This document shows, piece after piece, positions 3,375 to 17,644 of a stretch of 17,644 nt of DNA. The notes under the pieces are model-generated. The model had not been told where the DNA came from and did no database searches. It saw nothing but the letters and a program-made list of their open reading frames with translations. Position numbers and translations under genes: made by a program. The stretch covers positions 1-17,644 of the forward strand of contig JBMFJL010000007.1 of the NCBI GenBank assembly GCA_049973735.1, given 5' to 3'. The first letter of the stretch is position 1. Each line of letters opens with the position of its first letter. Source of the stretch: Nanopusillaceae archaeon (GTDB lineage Archaea; Nanobdellota; Nanobdellia; Nanobdellales; Nanobdellaceae).

Positions 3375-3721
3375 GTGAAACATTGGAAGATAGGTGGAGT
3401 GTTGATGTGGAAGAAAGTTTTGATGTAGATAGTTTGAAATATGAGAAAAAATTCATAATAAAGATAAAAAATCATTCTCCATATGTAAGAAGATTTGAAG
3501 TTGGTACTAAATATGCATATTTTAAAGATCAAGCAACCTCTTTAAGATTTAGATTATATTATAATCTAATAACTCCTGTATTAATATCCATAGATAAATA
3601 TAGAAAAGAAAATATAGAAGTGTTAATACCAAAAGCAAATTATTCTGTTGGAGATTATATTTTGATTTATGTAAAGAATCTAGATAAGAAAGAAGAAATG
3701 GATGTAAAATTATATGTATAA
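3371..3721 (+). CDS. Hypothetical protein (beta-rich, no recognisable motif)
   Basis: 116-aa ORF overlapped on both sides (ATGA with pth2, 8-nt ATGTATAA with rpp21). Its composition is typical of this genome's coding sequence. No family recognised. Confidence 0.55.
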   Translation: MSETLEDRWSVDVEESFDVDSLKYEKKFIIKIKNHSPYVRRFEVGTKYAYFKDQATSLRFRLYYNLITPVLISIDKYRKENIEVLIPKANYSVGDYILIYVKNLDKKEEMDVKLYV

Positions 3722-4166
3722 AAGAATAGCATTAAAGAGAATTAGATATTTATACAAGAAAGCTATAGAGAATTTAGACAATATAGAGATTTCTAGAAGA
3801 TATATTTATATTTTATGGAAAATAAAAAATAAAGCTAGAATAAGATTGCCAAAAGATTTAAGAAATAAATTCTGCAAAAAATGTTATACTCCCTGGGTTG
3901 TTGGAAAGACCTTACAAGTAAGAGTAAGGAAAGGTAGAATTATATATAAATGTTTATATTGTGGCAATGTTAAAAGGTTCATAATAAGAAAAAATTTAAA
4001 AGATATTTATATTAATGATATGACTAAGGGCGGCCAAAGTGGCCGGGAAACACCCGTTCCCATTTCGAACACGGAAGTTAAGCCGGCCCACGTCCGTGCG
4101 AGTACTGGCGAAGGCCGGGAAAGCACGGAAGCCGCCCACCCTAAATCACAGCAAATGGAACTATAA
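3714..4166 (+). CDS. rnp4: RNase P protein component 4 (Rpp21/Rpr2 family). The ORF continues through the 5S rRNA gene before reaching a stop
   Basis: N-terminal helices (RIALKRIRYLYKKAIE...SRRYIYILWKIKNKARIRLPKDLRNKFCKKC) plus a zinc ribbon CKKC...CLYCG match Rpp21. The homologous part ends near nt 4020. The remaining ~47 codons (GGQSGRETPVPISNTEVKPAHVRAS...) are 5S rDNA read in frame. Confidence 0.85.
   Translation: MYKRIALKRIRYLYKKAIENLDNIEISRRYIYILWKIKNKARIRLPKDLRNKFCKKCYTPWVVGKTLQVRVRKGRIIYKCLYCGNVKRFIIRKNLKDIYINDMTKGGQSGRETPVPISNTEVKPAHVRASTGEGRESTEAAHPKSQQMEL
4026..4141 (+). rRNA. rrf: 5S ribosomal RNA
   Basis: GC-rich island in AT-rich DNA. It contains the conserved 5S core CCCGUUCCCAUUUCGAACACGGAAGUUAAGCC. 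Helix I is GGGCGGC (4028-4034) paired with GCCGCCC (4131-4137), and helix IV/V is CCGUGC paired with GCACGG. Ends are accurate to +/- 3 nt. Confidence 0.92.
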
Positions 4167-7777: not shown

Positions 7778-8319
7778 TTATATAATTTAAAGTATTCGAT
7801 AATCCATTTTCTAATTTCTTCAGATTCATTATACAAATCTCTACCAGATAATTCTGTAAGTTTACTTTTACCAGTTGTTTTTTCTAAATTCTTCTTTAGA
7901 TTGGATAAAACCTTTGAAAAACCTAAAAATAACAAAATTTTTTCGGATTTTTTTGCTTTTTTTACATCAAAATCTTTAAATTCCTCTACTTTATGGAAAG
8001 ACTTTATACTAACAGAAATGTCTCCAATCAATGTATTTATATTGTATCCATTTACTACGATTCCTATTTCTAGTTTCCAATCTATTTTTGGTTCTTCCTT
8101 CCAGAAATTTTTATATAGTTCCCATTGAGCCTCAATATACAATGAATTATCAATTGCGGATAATTTATGAAAGTAGTATTTTTCGAATCTGTCTTTTTTA
8201 AATATACCTTCCCAGTTTTTTGACTTTAGTAGTTTTGCAAACTTCTCGTAAAAATCTTGTAATAAAAATCTAGTTTTGGTTCTTACAGATGTTTCATATA
8301 ATTTTTCCCAATCGCTCAT
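7771..8319 (-). CDS. Hypothetical protein (182 aa), downstream member of a tandem pair
   Basis: Soluble K/E/W/F-rich ORF with no motif I recognise. By eye it shows collinear weak similarity to the upstream 161-aa ORF (QxFY...SK, I.xxWxxxK, hShxI, KKNLxK). Its 3' end overlaps rpl32e convergently by 7 nt. Confidence 0.6.
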   Translation of the reverse strand: MSDWEKLYETSVRTKTRFLLQDFYEKFAKLLKSKNWEGIFKKDRFEKYYFHKLSAIDNSLYIEAQWELYKNFWKEEPKIDWKLEIGIVVNGYNINTLIGDISVSIKSFHKVEEFKDFDVKKAKKSEKILLFLGFSKVLSNLKKNLEKTTGKSKLTELSGRDLYNESEEIRKWIIEYFKLYNY

Positions 8320-8801
8320 AATCTAAATGAAGCAGTCAAGTCTTTTGCCAAATCCAAAAACCCGTCTCCTATTTTTGATAAATTTTTTTTGTGTTCTCCA
8401 ATTTCAGATCCAAAAATATAGCTTTCGAATAAACCCCTCAAAAATATATTAAATGGTTTATCTCCAAAATATTTTGCATAATCGGTTATTAGATCCCCAT
8501 TTATAGTTATTGATAAGTTTTCTGCATATTGTCTTCCACCTTCAAGTACTTTTAGATTATCTAAAGAAATTGATATATCATAGCTATAAGTTACATAATC
8601 TGTTACTTTTTTCTCAATATGCCATTCTAAACTAATAGATCTAGAACCATCTTCTTTAACTTTTTCATCATGTTTAGTTTCAAGAAAATCAAATCCTTTA
8701 GAGTCCCAATACTCTTTTAGAGATTTATAAAATTTTTGAAAATCAATTGGTCCTGAATATGAGAATTTCTTATTATCGATGATTCTATTTTTAGCTGGCA
8801 T
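8316..8801 (-). CDS. Hypothetical protein (161 aa), upstream member of a tandem pair
   Basis: ATG at 8799-8801 and an ATGA overlap with the 182-aa ORF. No TM segments and no recognisable catalytic motif. Confidence 0.6.
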   Translation of the reverse strand: MPAKNRIIDNKKFSYSGPIDFQKFYKSLKEYWDSKGFDFLETKHDEKVKEDGSRSISLEWHIEKKVTDYVTYSYDISISLDNLKVLEGGRQYAENLSITINGDLITDYAKYFGDKPFNIFLRGLFESYIFGSEIGEHKKNLSKIGDGFLDLAKDLTASFRL

Positions 8802-8880
8802 TTTAATATTTAAATATATTGAAAGTTATAACTTTTTACAACAATTTTTATAAAATTTATAAGATAATGATAAAAGTATT

Positions 8881-9267
8881 ATGAAGAAAATTGTTGATTT
8901 TTTATACAACATAAAGAGTAGGGAAAGAACTTTGATTATAGTAGAAGGAAGGAGGGATAAAGAAGCCTTGAATAAAATGGGTATAAAAAATGTTTATACA
9001 ATATATGAACTGAGGAAAATGGAAAATATATTTTTGGATTATAAAGAGGCAATAATCTTGACAGATAATGATAAAAAAGGAAATAAATTATATTTGTATG
9101 TAAAAAACATATTAGAATCAGAAGGATTAACTATTAATAATTATTATAGAAAGAAATTCTTTAATATATTTAAAGTAAAAGAAGTAGAGGATATAAATAA
9201 AAAGATAGATAGAATATTATTTTATGTTAATTATTTTGAGAATCCTGAGAAGATTTTAGAGATTTAA
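8881..9267 (+). CDS. Small Toprim-domain protein (RNase M5 / small primase-like, COG1658-type)
   Basis: LIIVEGRRDKEALNKMGI (conserved Toprim Glu) and ILTDNDKKGNKL (DxD acidic cluster) in a ~128-aa protein. Confidence 0.75.
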   Translation: MKKIVDFLYNIKSRERTLIIVEGRRDKEALNKMGIKNVYTIYELRKMENIFLDYKEAIILTDNDKKGNKLYLYVKNILESEGLTINNYYRKKFFNIFKVKEVEDINKKIDRILFYVNYFENPEKILEI

Positions 9268-10618
9268 ATTTTTTTATTGGATAAGACAATGGATTTTTGA
9301 TGAGTTTGCAAATTTCATCGGGTTTACAAACTCCAATTTCTTTATAATATATCTCATTATCACAATTTGGGGTTAAATATCTTTTATTATTTTTATACAA
9401 TTTTTTATGCCACTCTATTTGATATTCAATATACCTTTCTCTCAATGGTTCGCTTAATTTATCATTCCATTCCTTAATATATTTTTCTATTTTATCCCAG
9501 TCCCATCCAATGTTAGCTAAAAAATTAATTAGTATGAATACAGATCTTTTTCTCCCATCTTCTACTTCTCCACTAAGTATAGTTTTGATACATGGAGGGA
9601 ATAAAGATTCGTCTATATTAATTCTCTTTACTTTAATCTCTTCTATATCCTTTCTTATTTCTTTTTCGTTCTCTTCATTCTTATATTTCTCTGCTTTTTT
9701 TGCTATTTCTGTTATTTCTAAATCATTATTTGTTTTCCATAATAGTGCAGAATTTATTAATTTTTTAAGATCTTCAGATTCTTTTCTTTCTAAATCTTCA
9801 GTCAAAAAAGGTATACCTTCATATGAATAGTTTCCTATTTTAGAATACTCCTTGTCTATCTTTTCTATAAAATTTTCTTTTATCGGTATAGATAAACTAC
9901 CTGTTTTTTCATTTATCGAATACAATCCTCTAATTAAATGTCTCGTAGATATTAATATCGTATCTATTTCTATTATATCATAAGGATCAAAATTGCTAAT
10001 ATCTTTTACTCCAAATTCATTAAGTTGTTCTTCCGAAAATTTATACAATATTATTTTCTTTAAGGTATCTTTTATCTGAGATGAAATATACAAAGCTAAA
10101 ACTCTAGCTAAATCTGGAAATAATTTTCTAGTCTCTTCTTCTATGATATCTTCTTTTTTATATATATTAACCGTTTCAGGAAAAATTTCCCATGGTATGG
10201 CAATATGAAAACCCTTTCCACCAGAATATTTTATATAAATTGGTTTTATTGATTTTTCTTTTAAATAATTTACAATAATCTTTGCAGTAATCTTTGATAA
10301 TTCTAAATCTTTTGTATCAATATCTATTATAAAATCCCATCCAATTCTATAATTTTCAATCTCTTTTTTTGATGCTTTTTCTTTAAGTATATTCAGATCT
10401 AGCCATCTTTCTATAGATATATGATAAGATACTCCTCCTTTTCTAAATATGTTAAAAAAATCTTCTTCAGTTTCTATTTTATAAGGTCTTGAACCGAAAG
10501 AATTATTACTTAACATATATCCAATTTCTCTATTTTGTGAAATCTTTATTATATCTTCGACAATTTCCTTATTTTCTTTATAAAATTTCAGTAGACTTTG
10601 TGATATATTACTATTCAT
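9227..10618 (-). CDS. priS: Archaeo-eukaryotic DNA primase, single-chain fusion of the catalytic PriS module and a PriL C-terminal (Fe-S) domain-like module
   Basis: The N-terminal half carries AEP catalytic motifs DFIIDIDTKD (DxD) and SGGKGFHIAIPW. The C-terminal part carries the PriL-CTD hallmark FPPCIKTIL plus three further Cys (PNCDN...GVCKPDEIC), giving four candidate Fe-S ligands. Confidence 0.85.
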   Translation of the reverse strand: MNSNISQSLLKFYKENKEIVEDIIKISQNREIGYMLSNNSFGSRPYKIETEEDFFNIFRKGGVSYHISIERWLDLNILKEKASKKEIENYRIGWDFIIDIDTKDLELSKITAKIIVNYLKEKSIKPIYIKYSGGKGFHIAIPWEIFPETVNIYKKEDIIEEETRKLFPDLARVLALYISSQIKDTLKKIILYKFSEEQLNEFGVKDISNFDPYDIIEIDTILISTRHLIRGLYSINEKTGSLSIPIKENFIEKIDKEYSKIGNYSYEGIPFLTEDLERKESEDLKKLINSALLWKTNNDLEITEIAKKAEKYKNEENEKEIRKDIEEIKVKRINIDESLFPPCIKTILSGEVEDGRKRSVFILINFLANIGWDWDKIEKYIKEWNDKLSEPLRERYIEYQIEWHKKLYKNNKRYLTPNCDNEIYYKEIGVCKPDEICKLIKNPLSYPIKKFKSLKSSQDSQNN

Positions 10619-13623: not shown

Positions 13624-14028
13624 ATGGTATCTTTAGGTGACATATTTAAAAGGAAGAAGAGCGAATCCGAAGATAAATATTTAGAAGTAGTACCAACTCA
13701 AAAGGAGGAGGAAGTAAATATATACGTAAGAATATTTAGATTGAAGGATTCTTCAGAAGTTAAGGCAGTAGTAGATTCATTAAGAGAGAGAAACTATATA
13801 GCAATAGTAGATATAAGTGCATTAAATGTTGGAAAGGATTTGATAGAGGTTAAAAAAGTTGTATCTAGGCTAAGAACAGTAATTGAAACAATAGGTGGAG
13901 ATATTGCAGCAATAGACGTTGGCGGAAATAAGTTGATAATTGCTACACCACCATATGTAAAGATCTGGAGAGGACATCAGATGTCTGCTGTAGAAGAAGT
14001 AAAGAAAGAGGGACCAACTAATCAATAG
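13624..14028 (+). CDS. sepF: SepF-like cell-division protein (DUF552 family)
   Basis: VRIFRLKDSSEVKAVVDSLRERNYIAIVDISAL...VSRLRTVIETIGGDIAAIDVGGNKLIIATPPYVKI matches the SepF core fold pattern (family recalled from memory). Confidence 0.7.
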   Translation: MVSLGDIFKRKKSESEDKYLEVVPTQKEEEVNIYVRIFRLKDSSEVKAVVDSLRERNYIAIVDISALNVGKDLIEVKKVVSRLRTVIETIGGDIAAIDVGGNKLIIATPPYVKIWRGHQMSAVEEVKKEGPTNQ

Positions 14029-14507
14029 ATTTTTGAATACCCTTTTTCATCCTCTATAATTATAGTTAAAGTTTTATTGTTTCTAAGTACCTCTTCTAAA
14101 TAATTTATTTTTTGATTTATTGCATCTATTTTCTCTTTTTCATCATACAAGTACTTAAAGGAAGATAAATTTTCTTTTATTCTATTTATTAAATCATCTA
14201 TCGGTATTATTTCGAATTTTGATTCTATCCCCGGATAAATTTCTAAATCTATTTCTTTTAATATAATTTTTGCATAGGGAGATTTTAATATCAATTTCCT
14301 AAGTTTTTCTTCACTATCAACTATTATATTTAATGTTGTAGGATCACCTTCTTTTATTGGTATAATCTCTGAAGTTTTGTAACCACAATCATTGCATTTG
14401 AAAACATACAATATAGATTCTCCGATAGATGGGAAATCATAATAGATTTCTTTCACTTCGATATTCTTTGAATTACAAATTGGACAGTAATCTGATAAGA
14501 TTATCAT
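14022..14507 (-). CDS. ZPR1-type C4 zinc-finger protein (COG1779-like)
   Basis: CPICNS...(x)...CNDCGYKTSEI, followed by the ZPR1 beta-domain pattern (LNIIVDSEEKLRKLILKSPYAKIILKEIDLEIYPG). Confidence 0.75.
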   Translation of the reverse strand: MIILSDYCPICNSKNIEVKEIYYDFPSIGESILYVFKCNDCGYKTSEIIPIKEGDPTTLNIIVDSEEKLRKLILKSPYAKIILKEIDLEIYPGIESKFEIIPIDDLINRIKENLSSFKYLYDEKEKIDAINQKINYLEEVLRNNKTLTIIIEDEKGYSKIY

Positions 14508-14673
14508 TTATTCTAATTAATCTATATATTAAATTTATTTGAGCCCTCGATTTTGAAACATCTCTTCTATCAACAATAATTCTATTTCCTTCTATTTTTA
14601 TTTTTTCATCTTTTTCTAAAAATCTTATAGAATCTATAAAATCATCATCCAAACCTTCAATTATTACTCTCAT
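14473..14673 (-). CDS. Small protein, possibly a minimal KEOPS subunit Pcc1
   Basis: IKIEGNRIIVDRRDVSKSRAQINLIYRLIRI resembles the Pcc1 C-terminal strand-helix (EGN.L...A.D...LRA..NS.LR.I). The position after rpoP fits the archaeal exosome-superoperon neighbourhood. The call is weak and motif-level only. Confidence 0.4.
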   Translation of the reverse strand: MRVIIEGLDDDFIDSIRFLEKDEKIKIEGNRIIVDRRDVSKSRAQINLIYRLIRINDNLIRLLSNL

Positions 14674-14810
14674 ATCGCTTTTACTTTCTTTACGGTATTT
14701 GGTCTAAGTTTTATTAAAATTTTAGATCCACAATATGGACATTTAACCTTTTTTAGTGCAGTATCATGATCTAAAACTCTCTTACAATTCATACACATGT
14801 ATTTTGTCAT
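14670..14810 (-). CDS. rpoP: DNA-directed RNA polymerase subunit P (Rpo12)
   Basis: MTKYMCMNCKRVLD...VKCPYCGSKILIKLRP is the Rpo12 zinc ribbon. The ATG at 14808-14810 forms an ATGA overlap with the L37ae stop. The longer ORF-track version (to 14864) overlaps L37ae and is rejected. Confidence 0.85.
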   Translation of the reverse strand: MTKYMCMNCKRVLDHDTALKKVKCPYCGSKILIKLRPNTVKKVKAI

Positions 14811-15025
14811 TGTATTGAATATGCTTTTCCAGTAAACTTTTTGCCACAATGTTCGCAATACCATATTCCAAATGCTACTCTTTTTACAGCAACATAGTTA
14901 CAATATGGACATTTCAATCTTTTGTTTCTATATTTTTCTTCAATTTCTTTTACTTTTTCTCTAATACTTTTTCCATACCTAGAACCAAATCTCCCAGCAG
15001 GACCAACTAATTTAGTATGACCCAT
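14807..15025 (-). CDS. rpl37ae: 50S ribosomal protein L37Ae (eL43)
   Basis: GHTKLVGPAGRFGSRYGKSIREKV...CPYC...WYCEHCGKKFTGKAY matches L37Ae. Confidence 0.9.
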   Translation of the reverse strand: MGHTKLVGPAGRFGSRYGKSIREKVKEIEEKYRNKRLKCPYCNYVAVKRVAFGIWYCEHCGKKFTGKAYSIQ

Positions 15026-15067
15026 TTTGTATTATAATTTAAAAATATTTTATAAATATTCCAGATT
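15026..15067. promoter_or_regulatory. 42-nt divergent promoter spacer between rpl37ae (-) and rps19e (+)
   Basis: It contains AATTTAAAAATA (about 15037-15048), ~25 nt before the rps19e ATG. It also contains TTTATAAAT (15048-15056), whose reverse complement sits ~26 nt before the rpl37ae ATG. AT-richness limits specificity. Confidence 0.35.
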
Positions 15068-15577
15068 ATGGTTACTGTAAGAGATATACCAGGAAATTTG
15101 TATGTAGAAAGATTAGCCGAATATTTATTTAAAAACTATAGAAATGTAATAAAACCACCAGTATGGGCAAATTTTGTAAAGACAGGACCGGATAGAGAAA
15201 GAAATCCTGATTTTTATGCAGAGGTAAATTTTGATGGGGGGCCTGGTTGGTGGTATTATAGAGCAGCATCAATATTGAGACAAGTATATCTAAAAGGACC
15301 AATTGGTGTATCTAGATTGAGGAAAAAGTATGGTGGTTTAAGAAAGAGAGGAATGGAGCCAGGTAGATTCGTTAAAGGTTATGGAAAAATTGTAAGATTA
15401 ATATTACAACAATTGGAGCAGGCAGGATTAGTTATGCAAGTAAAGGAAGGAAAAAAGAAAGGAAGAGTTGTTACAAATCAAGGAAAAAGTATAATGGATA
15501 AATTGGCGAAGGAAATATACGAAGAATTACCAGAAGAAAACAAAAATCTAGAAAACTATTTAAAGAGTGTTTCTTAG
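15068..15577 (+). CDS. rps19e: 30S ribosomal protein S19e (eS19)
   Basis: VTVRDIPGNLYVERLAEYL...PPVWANFVKTG...WWYYRAASILRQVYLKGPIGVSRLRKKYGG matches S19e. Confidence 0.9.
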   Translation: MVTVRDIPGNLYVERLAEYLFKNYRNVIKPPVWANFVKTGPDRERNPDFYAEVNFDGGPGWWYYRAASILRQVYLKGPIGVSRLRKKYGGLRKRGMEPGRFVKGYGKIVRLILQQLEQAGLVMQVKEGKKKGRVVTNQGKSIMDKLAKEIYEELPEENKNLENYLKSVS

Positions 15578-16043
15578 ATCTGCAAGTTTATGGGTTGAAT
15601 TTTTATTATATACTGCAGTAGCAATAACAATATTGGCATTTACTTTATACTATGTTAGATTATCAGTGCAAAATCAGCAATCTCAAATAGATCTAAAGTA
15701 TACTGTAAATTTGTTGTCAAGTTTAAATTATCAGATTGAACAAATTAGTTCATGTTATTCATGTAATTATAGATTTTTTCAGCAGTTACCAAATGGTCTA
15801 ACAATTTATGTATATCCTGGAAGAATAAATGCGGTTTATATATCAACAGTAAACTATACACTTAGTTTGCCAAATTATATTAGTTTAAATGTAAAAAGAA
15901 CAGGTTATAATGCTTTTCTATACAATTTTACATTAAATACTGTTCCTTTTAACTTACAAGGTGCCAGTAACTATACATTCACAGATAATATTTGTTTACT
16001 TTTGAATAAAACACCTTCAGGTTACTATATAAGTAAATGTTAA
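15567..16043 (+). CDS. Hypothetical secreted/membrane-anchored protein with a pilin-like N-terminus
   Basis: GTG start overlapping the rps19e end by 11 nt (start uncertain). N-terminus is MFLRSA|SLWVEFLLYTAVAITILAF: a short basic n-region, then ~20 hydrophobic residues with a Glu near the front. The remainder is N/Y/S/T-rich with 4 Cys and 4 NxS/T sequons. Confidence 0.55.
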   Translation: MFLRSASLWVEFLLYTAVAITILAFTLYYVRLSVQNQQSQIDLKYTVNLLSSLNYQIEQISSCYSCNYRFFQQLPNGLTIYVYPGRINAVYISTVNYTLSLPNYISLNVKRTGYNAFLYNFTLNTVPFNLQGASNYTFTDNICLLLNKTPSGYYISKC

Positions 16044-16480
16044 ATACAGAAAAAATTTGTATAACTTTCATTGCTTTTATTTATTATATAACAAAAACAT
16101 ATCCAGTCCGGGGGATTATATATGGTAAAATTTTTATCACAATACTTAAGTATAGAGCTATTTAAGTAAAAATATCCATTGAAATAATAACAGCAATTTA
16201 CATCAGTTCCAGTACATCTAGGTAAAGATAGATTGTGAGATGATACACAAACAAAGGAAAAATTAAAGTTTATATTTTCTACATAATTTTTAAAAAGTAA
16301 AGTATAATCTGATATATAATTATATCCAAAATTTTTGTATATATAAATTATTTCATTTTTGAAATTTTTTCCAATGATAATTGCATCTATATTTTCGATA
16401 GGTCGCATATATCTAACTGTTAAAAATGATAATAATACTATTATAAAAGCAGATGCAAGTAAAATATATTGTACTCTCAT
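16040..16480 (-). CDS. Hypothetical N-terminally anchored, Cys-rich extracellular protein
   Basis: N-terminus MRVQYILLASAFIIVLLSFLTV, followed by an N/Y/F-rich domain with 8 Cys and 6 NxS/T sequons. ATGA overlap with the upstream gene. Its stop shares the TTAA at 16040-16043 with the convergent gene. Confidence 0.6.
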   Translation of the reverse strand: MRVQYILLASAFIIVLLSFLTVRYMRPIENIDAIIIGKNFKNEIIYIYKNFGYNYISDYTLLFKNYVENINFNFSFVCVSSHNLSLPRCTGTDVNCCYYFNGYFYLNSSILKYCDKNFTIYNPPDWICFCYIINKSNESYTNFFCI

Positions 16481-16800
16481 GATAATATTATTAGTATATA
16501 TGGACTATAATTGCTTTTGCCAGAGTATAGATATTCAAATACTGGATGAAAGTTTGATACATCTGATAAATTAGTATAATTTCCAAAAAAACAAACGGTT
16601 ATGTTATAATTTGTTAAATTTATTATTTCATATATTAAATTATTATCATTGCAAGATTCGTTGAGATATCTAAACTTATTTGGGTCATAATATTCATTTA
16701 AAGAAGTCAACGTATTTTGATGATAATAATTATACAAAAAGAAGAATGTTAGTATAATAATAGAAAAAGCAAGTTCTACTAAAACAATCCACCCTCTCAT
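16477..16800 (-). CDS. Hypothetical small pilin-like membrane-anchored protein
   Basis: N-terminus MRG|WIVLVELAFSIIILTFFFLY (an Arg-Gly, then a hydrophobic helix with an early Glu). 107 aa with 2 Cys and 6 NxS/T sequons. ATGA overlaps on both sides. Confidence 0.6.
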   Translation of the reverse strand: MRGWIVLVELAFSIIILTFFFLYNYYHQNTLTSLNEYYDPNKFRYLNESCNDNNLIYEIINLTNYNITVCFFGNYTNLSDVSNFHPVFEYLYSGKSNYSPYILIILS

Positions 16801-17644
16801 TTTATATATATTATCATTTGATCTTTATATAAAGAATTGACATCTTTTGTATTTAGTATATAGATATCAAACAATTGAGAATATTTATAATTGCTTATTA
16901 AATTTCCATTATATACTGTACCATTGTAAATAGTTATATTAGCATTTATAATGTAAAAGTAAGCATCTGGATAGTTTTTTGATATATCTACTAAGTTATT
17001 TATATTTATGGCATTTATTTCTTCTATATAGTTTATTTTCATTTCTGGGATTTGCGTAGAGAACGCTAAAAATCTGGCATCACCTAAATTTATATTTGGA
17101 TTTGCATAAATGTATATGTAGTAATTTTGGTAATTTGGAATATTTGTCAATGATAAATTTAATATATACTTTCCACCAAGATTAGTTAGGTTAACAATTG
17201 GATTATAATTAGTATATAGAATTGAATTTATGTATTTTTCACATGGACTCACGTAACTTCCCGTGAGAATACCATTTTCATATGGGTAATAAATATAACC
17301 ACTCAATAAATTACTTACATCGTACACCAAATTATAAAAATTGGAATAATCTACTACTAATCCATAATTTCTCTGGCTTGTATTCCAGTAAATTAAATTG
17401 GAAGAATTGTAATATTTTTGTGTATCGAATACATACCAGTAGGAGTCAGAAAATAAGATATCTTTTATTGATAAATTTGTGGAATTGTATAAATACATTA
17501 TTGCTAAAGGTTCTTTATATACATAATTAGTTAAGTTATAAGGTTCATATTGGGAAGTATAGAAAGAATATGCTATTTCTTGCCAGATATCAATAAAATA
17601 ATAGCCAGTAGGAGAAACAATAGGGATACTACATACGTATGTCG
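16797..17644 (-). CDS. Large Asn/Tyr-rich putative surface protein, C-terminal part; the 5' end lies outside the window
   Basis: I translated the frame upstream of the ORF-track ATG (17498) by hand. It stays open to the window edge (...TYVCSIPIVSPTGYYFIDIWQEIAYSFYTSQYEPYNLTNYVYKEPLAIMYLYNST...). It is very poor in K/E compared with the cytoplasmic proteins here and has many NxS/T sequons. Confidence 0.6.
   Translation of the reverse strand, partial: TYVCSIPIVSPTGYYFIDIWQEIAYSFYTSQYEPYNLTNYVYKEPLAIMYLYNSTNLSIKDILFSDSYWYVFDTQKYYNSSNLIYWNTSQRNYGLVVDYSNFYNLVYDVSNLLSGYIYYPYENGILTGSYVSPCEKYINSILYTNYNPIVNLTNLGGKYILNLSLTNIPNYQNYYIYIYANPNINLGDARFLAFSTQIPEMKINYIEEINAININNLVDISKNYPDAYFYIINANITIYNGTVYNGNLISNYKYSQLFDIYILNTKDVNSLYKDQMIIYIK

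Follow-up and report, generated by a model that had tools for sequence, protein, structure and literature searches.

The stretch of DNA analysed here (17,644 nucleotides at full length, contig JBMFJL010000007.1 of assembly GCA_049973735.1; hereafter the window) belongs to the lineage of Nanopusillaceae-type nanoarchaea. It is AT-rich, with a G+C content of about 22-29% over the region, and is packed with archaeal housekeeping genes, i.e., those of ribosomal proteins, GluRS, primase, SepF and prefoldin. Its right end is occupied by a cluster of four genes, named A, B, C and D below. The comparisons described in the following paragraphs show a real surface module, which is conserved within one lineage and restricted to it and which resembles adhesins and pilins in its build; the function proposed for it is inferred. 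The features of the cluster are the following.

15567-16043, plus strand: gene A, an open reading frame (ORF) of 158 amino acids with a GTG start; N-terminal anchor and predicted beta-sandwich ectodomain with sequons and 4 invariant Cys; converges on gene B.
15579-15656, plus strand: hydrophobic stretch at the N-terminus of A, covering residues about 5-30; the motif SLW-x-EFL-x-YT is invariant.
16040-16480, minus strand: gene B, an ORF of 146 amino acids; N-terminal anchor and ectodomain with 8 invariant Cys.
16415-16471, minus strand: hydrophobic stretch at the N-terminus of B, covering residues about 4-22; the start M-[KR]-x-QYIL is conserved.
16477-16800, minus strand: gene C, an ORF of 107 amino acids; N-terminal anchor and small ectodomain with 2 invariant Cys.
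16732-16791, minus strand: hydrophobic stretch at the N-terminus of C, covering residues about 4-23; pattern MR-[GS]-W-x4-E-x2-FS, in which the Glu at position 9 is invariant.
16797-17644, minus strand: the C-terminal 282 codons of gene D; the frame is open to the window end and the whole protein has about 720 amino acids in the closest relative.
17154-17622, minus strand: part of D that matches a hypervariable (mosaic) cassette, as seen in the identity comparison with the orthologues P0164 and P0163.

The coordinates and lengths given in a preliminary description of the cluster are all reproduced, as is the convergent gene A abutting B. The D/C and C/B junctions are ATGA overlaps, D lying upstream of C and B downstream. 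Genes A and B converge with stop codons that overlap by 4 nucleotides, and the start of A overlaps the stop codon of the S19e gene by 11 nucleotides. The ATGA chaining put forward in that description is thus real. As an argument for joint function it is weak, because overlap is the habit of this genome: 15 of the 22 same-strand neighbour pairs in the window overlap, mostly by 4 nucleotides (ATGA type), functionally unrelated pairs included.

The four proteins differ in composition from the cytoplasmic proteins of the window, as had been noticed before. Lys plus Glu amount to 3.8-7.5% in A-D vs. 17-35% in the cytoplasmic proteins, and Asn, Tyr, Ser and Thr to 35-43% vs. 12-24%. The low content of Lys and Glu is not special to A-D, since other membrane proteins have it too. 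The content of Asn, Tyr, Ser and Thr is above the membrane background within the window, i.e., the 24-26% of its two polytopic membrane proteins. The Cys counts of A, B, C and D are 4, 8, 2 and 2, respectively (D: window part), and the previous counts for A-C are the same. GluRS has no Cys, again as first reported, and most of the remaining Cys of the window are found in four-Cys proteins (Rpp21, ZPR1, p64, L37ae and primase). The sequon counts are 4, 6, 6 and 9 (D: window part). The sequons claimed to be dense in the cluster were correctly counted in A-C; their number exceeds composition-matched shuffles in B (P=0.004), C (P=0.006) and D (P=0.036) but not in A (P=0.28).

A search with S19e led to ten Nanopusillaceae loci (67-75% identity), from Nanopusillus spp., N. 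acidilobi, Nanobsidianus Nst1 and Nanoclepta. All ten, as well as Nanobdella aerobiophila, L016 and L018, show the order S19e -> A <- B <- C <- D; the number of related loci with this arrangement beside S19e is 14. No exact match to the C, S19e or B sequence of the window is on record. The conservation in relatives on which the module proposal had been made to depend is thus observed in Nanopusillus, Nanobsidianus, Nanobdella and Nanoclepta. Closest to the window is L016, a locus from a metagenomic relative, where the window part of D is 73% identical to residues 457-720 of the D orthologue (P0164, 720 amino acids). A-D are 52-73% identical to the proteins of nearer relatives and 31-36% identical to those of Nanoclepta; these values are at the low end among the window genes, yet they are no outliers. 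The orthologues of A are 56-59% identical in 11 loci, each time between S19e and B, those of B 60-66% (Nanoclepta 36%) and those of C 57-61% (Nanoclepta 36%). Every Cys is invariant across 12 orthologues (4 of 4 in A, 8 of 8 in B and 2 of 2 in C), and 4, 5 and 4 sequon columns of A, B and C, respectively, are kept in at least 75% of them.

Judged on these sequence comparisons, A-D are genuine genes for predicted extracytoplasmic proteins under purifying selection, and the module is conserved and confined to this lineage (Nanoarchaeales). A non-coding artefact of AT-rich sequence is ruled out by the Cys and sequons conserved across 12 genomes. An integrated virus or plasmid remnant is likewise ruled out by the fixed core-genome site between ribosomal genes and a 95%-conserved ATPase gene. 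In N. acidilobi, A corresponds to Nps_02820, B to Nps_02815, C to Nps_02810 and D to Nps_02805. Each is listed with one transmembrane segment and without arCOG, the annotation being either uncharacterised or 'predicted membrane or secreted' (PMC4935971 Supplementary Data 1).

A single hydrophobic segment, defined as a Kyte-Doolittle 19-residue window above 1.6, is found at the N-terminus of each of A-D; the exception is one D orthologue, where another segment, a weak one, is seen. Only 2-11 residues precede the hydrophobic helix across A-D, and all conserved Cys and sequons are C-terminal to the segment, in agreement with the N-terminal anchoring first suggested. This topology, the conserved sequons and the conserved Cys are features of N-glycosylated, disulfide-bonded surface proteins. 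Moreover, the cells of N. acidilobi are surface-glycosylated, with GlcNAc revealed by lectin staining (PMC4935971). These features support an extracytoplasmic, N-terminally anchored location of A-D, with predicted glycosylation and disulfides.

The N-terminal patterns are M-[KR]-[G/S/D]-[IV]-SLW-[VI]-EFLIYT for A, M-[KR]-x-QYIL for B, MR-[GS]-W-x4-E-x2-FS for C and M-[AV]-R-G-I-V-K-E-I-E-G-[VI]-IAIVIF for D. When profiles are aligned with hhalign, A, C and D have [KR]-[small, GS]-x5-E at corresponding positions. In the case of D, all 35 sequences have E10 and 33 of them G11, and a hydrophobic run comes next; the EG is kept in distant D homologues, with the exception of P0222 and P0223. Past the N-terminal segment, hhalign detects no similarity or paralogy among the A, B, C and D profiles. 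A short, conserved, hydrophobic strand-like motif closes both C (16477-16500, minus strand; P-[YF]-IL-[IY]-I-x-x) and D (16797-16815, minus strand; [IL]-x-IY-[IL]-K).

It must be mentioned that the A gene of the window starts at a GTG (15567-15575, plus strand) two codons upstream of the start in all orthologues, which gives MFLRSASLW vs. M[KR][GS][IV]SLW. The orthologous start codon is here CTT, i.e., no start, thus the N-terminus of A has been remodelled in this genome.

AlphaFold2 (AF2) models were made for A and for the D orthologue P0164. The model of A has a pLDDT (predicted local distance difference test) of 88.5 and a pTM (predicted template modelling score) of 0.74. It consists of a helix (residues 2-61) followed by 8 strands (66-157) in a beta-sandwich. 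A long N-terminal helix packed on a beta-rich domain is thus present in the model of A, and a helix (residues 2-56) is also present in the low-confidence model of P0164. A is predicted with high confidence to have a pilin-type architecture, i.e., a resemblance in build to a type IV filament subunit.

A, B and C match no Pfam or NCBIfam family, whether window proteins, N. acidilobi proteins or aligned orthologues are used. Profile searches of the three against PDB sequences give compositional noise only (prion proteins, beta-lactamases). A Malectin_like match of C (E=0.007, below the cut-off) was rejected, being present in 1 of 12 orthologues. The earlier remark that no family is recognised in the cluster is therefore valid for A-C; it does not apply to D, in which DUF2341 is found.

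Full-length D orthologues have 551-753 amino acids and 20-35 sequons. A word-indexed profile search gives 59 D proteins, every one from this lineage and hypothetical. An exhaustive search with the D profile, which covered 1.84 billion representative proteins, adds a few very divergent D homologues. Among these representatives, proteins are matched by D-profile positions about 154-260 at E 1e-11 to 1e-4. DUF2341 (PF10102) is called by Pfam in 9 of the 10 matches that were scanned, with overlapping coordinates in most. The alignment displays motifs common to D and DUF2341 proteins, namely NP-x4-LT-x-Y-x-V ... FCY ... C ... IWV ... G-x2-F-x2-YD-x-F. At the level of profile comparison, the D family carries a DUF2341 domain. 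This domain lies in the part of D beyond the window edge and is assigned to the window copy via the orthology of its C-terminal 282 amino acids. In the orthologues, the N-terminal part that is missing here holds the DUF2341 domain as well as a pilin-like helix and an alpha/beta region with Cys. In the P0164 model, the N-terminal helix is followed by an alpha/beta region and by a confident beta domain at about 140-250. The region after DUF2341 is beta-rich, with weak fold matches to sandwiches of the lectin or carbohydrate-binding module (CBM) type.

Between the D proteins of L016 (P0164) and L001 (P0163), two near-identical genomes, the identity is 95-98% over residues 1-387, drops to 47-60% over about 388-602 and returns to 85-93% at the C-terminal end. 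Over 17154-17622 (minus strand), the D protein of the window is 73-83% identical to P0164 and only 50-63% to P0163, i.e., it has the L016-type cassette. Such a mosaic pattern suggests recombination or diversifying selection, and the cassette, which is placed in the C-terminal third of D, fits a partner-binding surface under diversification. An excess of non-synonymous single-nucleotide polymorphisms in 'hypothetical external' proteins was reported by Jarett et al. (PMC6142677). DUF2341 is known from large proteins of archaeal type IV pilus (T4P) loci, which were read as PilY-like tip adhesins accompanied by five or more minor pilins (Makarova, Koonin & Albers 2016, PMC4858521). In the available parts of the supplements of this 2016 census, where proteins go by GI number, the tags Nst1_318 to Nst1_322 were not found. 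In M. maripaludis, a transposon screen for transformation-defective mutants repeatedly gave hits in the DUF2341 gene of the epd locus (PMC10133366). The DUF2341 homology and the mosaic variable cassette support the view of D as an adhesin-like large subunit.

The best explanation, held tentatively and at slightly less than an even chance, is that A-D are Nanoarchaeales-specific surface glycoproteins built like type IV filament (TFF) subunits, three small ones and a large modular one, in a TFF-assembled complex. A simple anchor would hardly account for the EG, invariant in D, or for the Glu conserved within the helices of A, C and D. A-D would be inserted N-in/C-out and would be N-glycosylated and disulfide-bonded outside the cell. 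They would associate via their N-terminal helices, the conserved Glu of A, C and D being used for this association. The result would be a short complex, of the minor-pilin/tip type or stalk-like, presenting D. The lectin-like modules and the variable cassette of D would then bind a glycosylated partner surface, most plausibly that of the host cell. Assembly would be ensured by a type IV filament machine encoded elsewhere in these genomes. Filament genes are indeed found elsewhere in N. acidilobi, i.e., ArlI/ArlH (Nps_00925/00930) and a second ATPase/TadC pair (Nps_02245/02250), while no prepilin peptidase is named in its gene table. According to Jarett et al., Nanoarchaeota have two T4P systems and an archaellum (PMC6142677).

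The archaeal T4P sets of minor pilins with DUF2341 proteins (Epd/system 1, Methanococci and relatives; PMC4858521) are similar in three respects: (i) one or two large secreted DUF2341 proteins stand beside several small N-terminally hydrophobic proteins; (ii) conserved Cys are expected to form disulfides; (iii) the proteins are fast-evolving and annotated as hypothetical. In contrast, A-D have no prepilin peptidase, no TadC/ArlJ platform and no ATPase of the PilB/ArlI type beside them. Pilin arCOGs and pilin families of Pfam show no match to A-C, the N-termini of A-D are not canonical class III, and the DUF2341 domain of D is detectable at profile level only.

In bacteria, the T4P minor pilins with PilY1 and the GspH-I-J-K proteins of the type II secretion system associate several small pilin-like subunits with one large subunit or adhesin, in what is regarded as a complex for priming or for the tip. 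Both groups have a conserved Glu close to where the hydrophobic helix begins. However, the bacterial subunits have a G|F-x3-E5 motif and are encoded or regulated with the pilus machinery, whereas the Glu of A, C and D is six residues after G/S and the cleavage is putative. PilY1 is not itself a pilin; D has its own N-terminal helix and thus resembles a 'modular pilin'.

Several observations weigh against a filament-type complex. (i) No pilin, archaellin or TadE family of Pfam or NCBIfam matches A-D at E up to 10. (ii) With Foldseek against PDB, the model of A finds no pilin and gives weak Ig-like matches only (E>0.03). The model of D also finds no pilin and gives only weak sandwiches of the CBM6, CDTb-RBD, PA14 and Vip3/Cry type (E>3e-3), which are consistent with a lectin-like sandwich but are no evidence by themselves; the P0164 model is moreover poor overall (pLDDT 54.5). 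(iii) The residue at -2 of archaeal class III sites is typically positive (PMC3387779). A core pattern of the FlaFind type gives no match in A, B or C (12 of 12 orthologues). In D it matches solely at E10-G11 (10 of 10 orthologues), where the -2 residue is not the usual positive one. The residue after [KR], i.e., the putative -1, varies in A and C (G/S/D), which is unusual for a peptidase site. (iv) No filament ATPase (PilB/ArlI type), platform (ArlJ/TadC) or prepilin peptidase is found within 10 kb in L001-L010, L014 and L016. (v) When D sequences are submitted to Pfam one by one, DUF2341 is called in only 2 of the 37, with a best E of 0.0057, below the gathering score. (vi) Nps_02805-02820 have no abundance value in the published N. 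acidilobi proteome table (PMC4935971 Supplementary Data 1). Processing of A-D by a prepilin peptidase may occur; the N-terminal sequences neither support nor exclude it. Of the pilin/adhesin set proposed in the preliminary description, the adhesin-like D (DUF2341, cassette) and the pilin-like build of A are retained, while a pilin family, a pilin structure, a clean class III motif and filament machinery at the locus are not found.

These observations leave room for a second explanation, possible although rather unlikely, in which A-D form a static complex. They would be uncleaved signal-anchor (type II) glycoproteins of the membrane or pseudo-periplasm, similar to ArlF/ArlG-type proteins or to proteins that anchor or space the S-layer. 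D would then be a tethered lectin or adhesin, and no filament machinery would be involved. The variable residue at the putative -1, the lack of a canonical class III motif in A-C, the lack of any pilin family or structure match and a locus devoid of filament machinery would all be expected, and AF2 gives an unbroken helix from residue 2 in both A and D. The two distant D homologues devoid of EG (P0222 and P0223) go in the same direction. Nevertheless, such anchors hardly explain why a Glu within the hydrophobic helix (A, C and D) and the EG of D are conserved, and the set of three small proteins and a large DUF2341 protein parallels the minor-pilin/adhesin sets of pili.

ArlF and ArlG (FlaF/FlaG) have about 150 amino acids, with an N-terminal membrane helix and a beta-sandwich ectodomain, and are accessory or anchoring parts of the archaellum outside the membrane. 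In these generally known features of size and build (helix and beta-sandwich), A-C and ArlF/ArlG are alike. The difference is that ArlF/ArlG match the Flagellin_arch type, as does a 146-amino-acid protein of the locus L017 (see below), whereas A, B and C do not. The identification of A-C as ArlF/ArlG was dropped for this reason; moreover, these genomes are reported to have their own ArlF/ArlG besides A-C.

A gene for a DUF87/HerA-family ATPase of 432 amino acids (425-437 across loci; arCOG00284 in N. acidilobi) is located directly upstream of D and overlaps its start. It precedes D wherever the upstream sequence is covered (L001-L005, L007-L010, L014 and L016), while the window itself ends before it. 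The copy in L007 is at 13953-15251 (minus strand), i.e., by synteny just past the right edge of the window. In L017 (GCA_964573185) it precedes a very divergent D homologue, with no A, B or C within 9.7 kb. The ATPase belongs to the FtsK-HerA pumping superfamily (DUF87 at 1.8e-11, weak HerA_C and Zot matches, NCBIfam CedD at E=0.0097). Its family has more than 3,400 homologues and is well conserved across DPANN. The orthologues of Woesearchaeota and other DPANN, which are 45-59% identical (45-50% for Woesearchaeota), have no A-D-like neighbours, thus the ATPase does not co-occur everywhere with such membrane parts. Because these orthologues adjoin unrelated genes, the link between the ATPase and A-D is treated as lineage-specific and unproven. 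The arCOG00284 ATPase is uncharacterised and is distinct from HerA proper of N. acidilobi (Nps_01240). Its neighbours elsewhere (L011, L013, L015, L017 and L020) include translin, RadA with an OB-fold protein, a MiaB-like radical SAM enzyme and a small protein with two transmembrane segments.

In L008, the mechanically called D ORF is 14 residues longer at its N-terminus (MAWRCRSYINKKKI...; 13948-13989, minus strand) than every orthologue. This almost certainly reflects an upstream in-frame start inside the ATPase gene and no real extension. In L017, the region 8311-9764 (plus strand), downstream of the D homologue and of NTPase (nucleoside triphosphatase) and ferredoxin genes, contains a 146-amino-acid Flagellin_arch-type (ArlF/G-like) gene, a 146-amino-acid anchored protein and a gene of more than 192 amino acids. 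The product of the last one starts with MKNQIYPYVIL, resembling the MRxQYILL of B. This arrangement may connect D with accessory genes of the archaellum.

A third explanation gives the central role to this ATPase. It would power a lineage-specific envelope apparatus (for secretion, transfer of DNA or macromolecules, or filament extrusion), with D, C, B and A as its extracellular and membrane parts, loosely like Ced/Ted, type IV secretion or the pI ATPase by which filamentous phages are assembled. It is an improbable explanation, even though D is preceded and overlapped by the ATPase gene wherever upstream sequence is covered, L017 included, and the ATPase is a member of a superfamily of pumps. 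The orthologues of other DPANN adjoin unrelated genes without any D-like neighbour, overlapping genes are the norm in this genome, and the ATPase sits outside the window. In addition, the locus has no polytopic membrane partner, and the very short cytoplasmic tails of A-D, of only 2-3 residues, make a direct coupling implausible.

The comparison with Ced/Ted and conjugative type IV secretion leads to the same picture. These systems also have, in an archaeon, a gene for an FtsK/HerA-superfamily ATPase beside genes for small membrane proteins. But here (i) the match to the CedD model is only the weak one mentioned above (E=0.0097); (ii) no polytopic CedA/VirB6-like protein is present, the cluster containing neither a polytopic channel or platform protein nor two-helix pilins; (iii) A-D are single-pass, with large ectodomains predicted to be glycosylated, as opposed to the two-helix pilins of the VirB2/CedA1 type; (iv) the ATPase orthologues elsewhere are without A-D-like neighbours. 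A variant in which a HerA/FtsK-type ATPase, in place of a PilB/ArlI-type one, was recruited to pilin-like glycoproteins as an undescribed apparatus at the symbiont-host contact site, the cassette of D setting host specificity, is a long shot as well.

Least probable is the absence of any joint function, i.e., four unrelated anchored or secreted proteins adjacent by chance in a compact genome and alike in composition as extracellular proteins of an AT-rich thermophile: the lack of similarity among A-D past the N-terminal segment, the opposite strand of A and the presence in L017 of D without B, C and A (within 9.7 kb) would fit, but the order A/B/C/D is the same from Nanopusillus to Nanoclepta despite an ectodomain identity of 31-36%, and the N-terminal motif is common in register.

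Two other observations concern the rest of the window. Longer overlaps are found for S4e/L5 (55 nucleotides), p64/L37ae (58 nucleotides) and ZPR1/p66 (35 nucleotides), which probably reflect start codons called too far upstream. A 5S rRNA gene is located at 4026-4140 (plus strand; Rfam RF00001, 79 bits, E=1e-15), inside the 3' part of the Rpp21-like ORF 3714-4166. The odd C-terminal tail of this ORF is probably a read-through into the 5S rRNA gene, and the local G+C peak of 0.36 is due to the same gene.

No description of the A-D cluster was found in the searchable literature. Pilin-like subunits with a DUF2341 adhesin are a known kind of system and are not surprising in principle. The present set differs in being detached from filament machinery, without canonical signal motifs and chained to a HerA-family ATPase gene.

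How the Nanoarchaeota, like other ectosymbionts among the DPANN, recognise their hosts and keep hold of them is an unresolved question, for which Wurch et al. (2016) named 'conserved predicted membrane proteins' as a place to look for host interaction (PMC4935971). The present cluster is found in all three cultivated terrestrial nanoarchaeal systems, i.e., N. acidilobi, Nanoclepta minutus and Nanobdella aerobiophila. It thus provides a short and specific list of proteins as a testable candidate for host attachment, a role that we infer from the features above and that is concrete although unproven. Should A-D be an ordinary set of anchored glycoproteins, four 'hypothetical' core genes of the lineage would still be annotated as genes for surface proteins.

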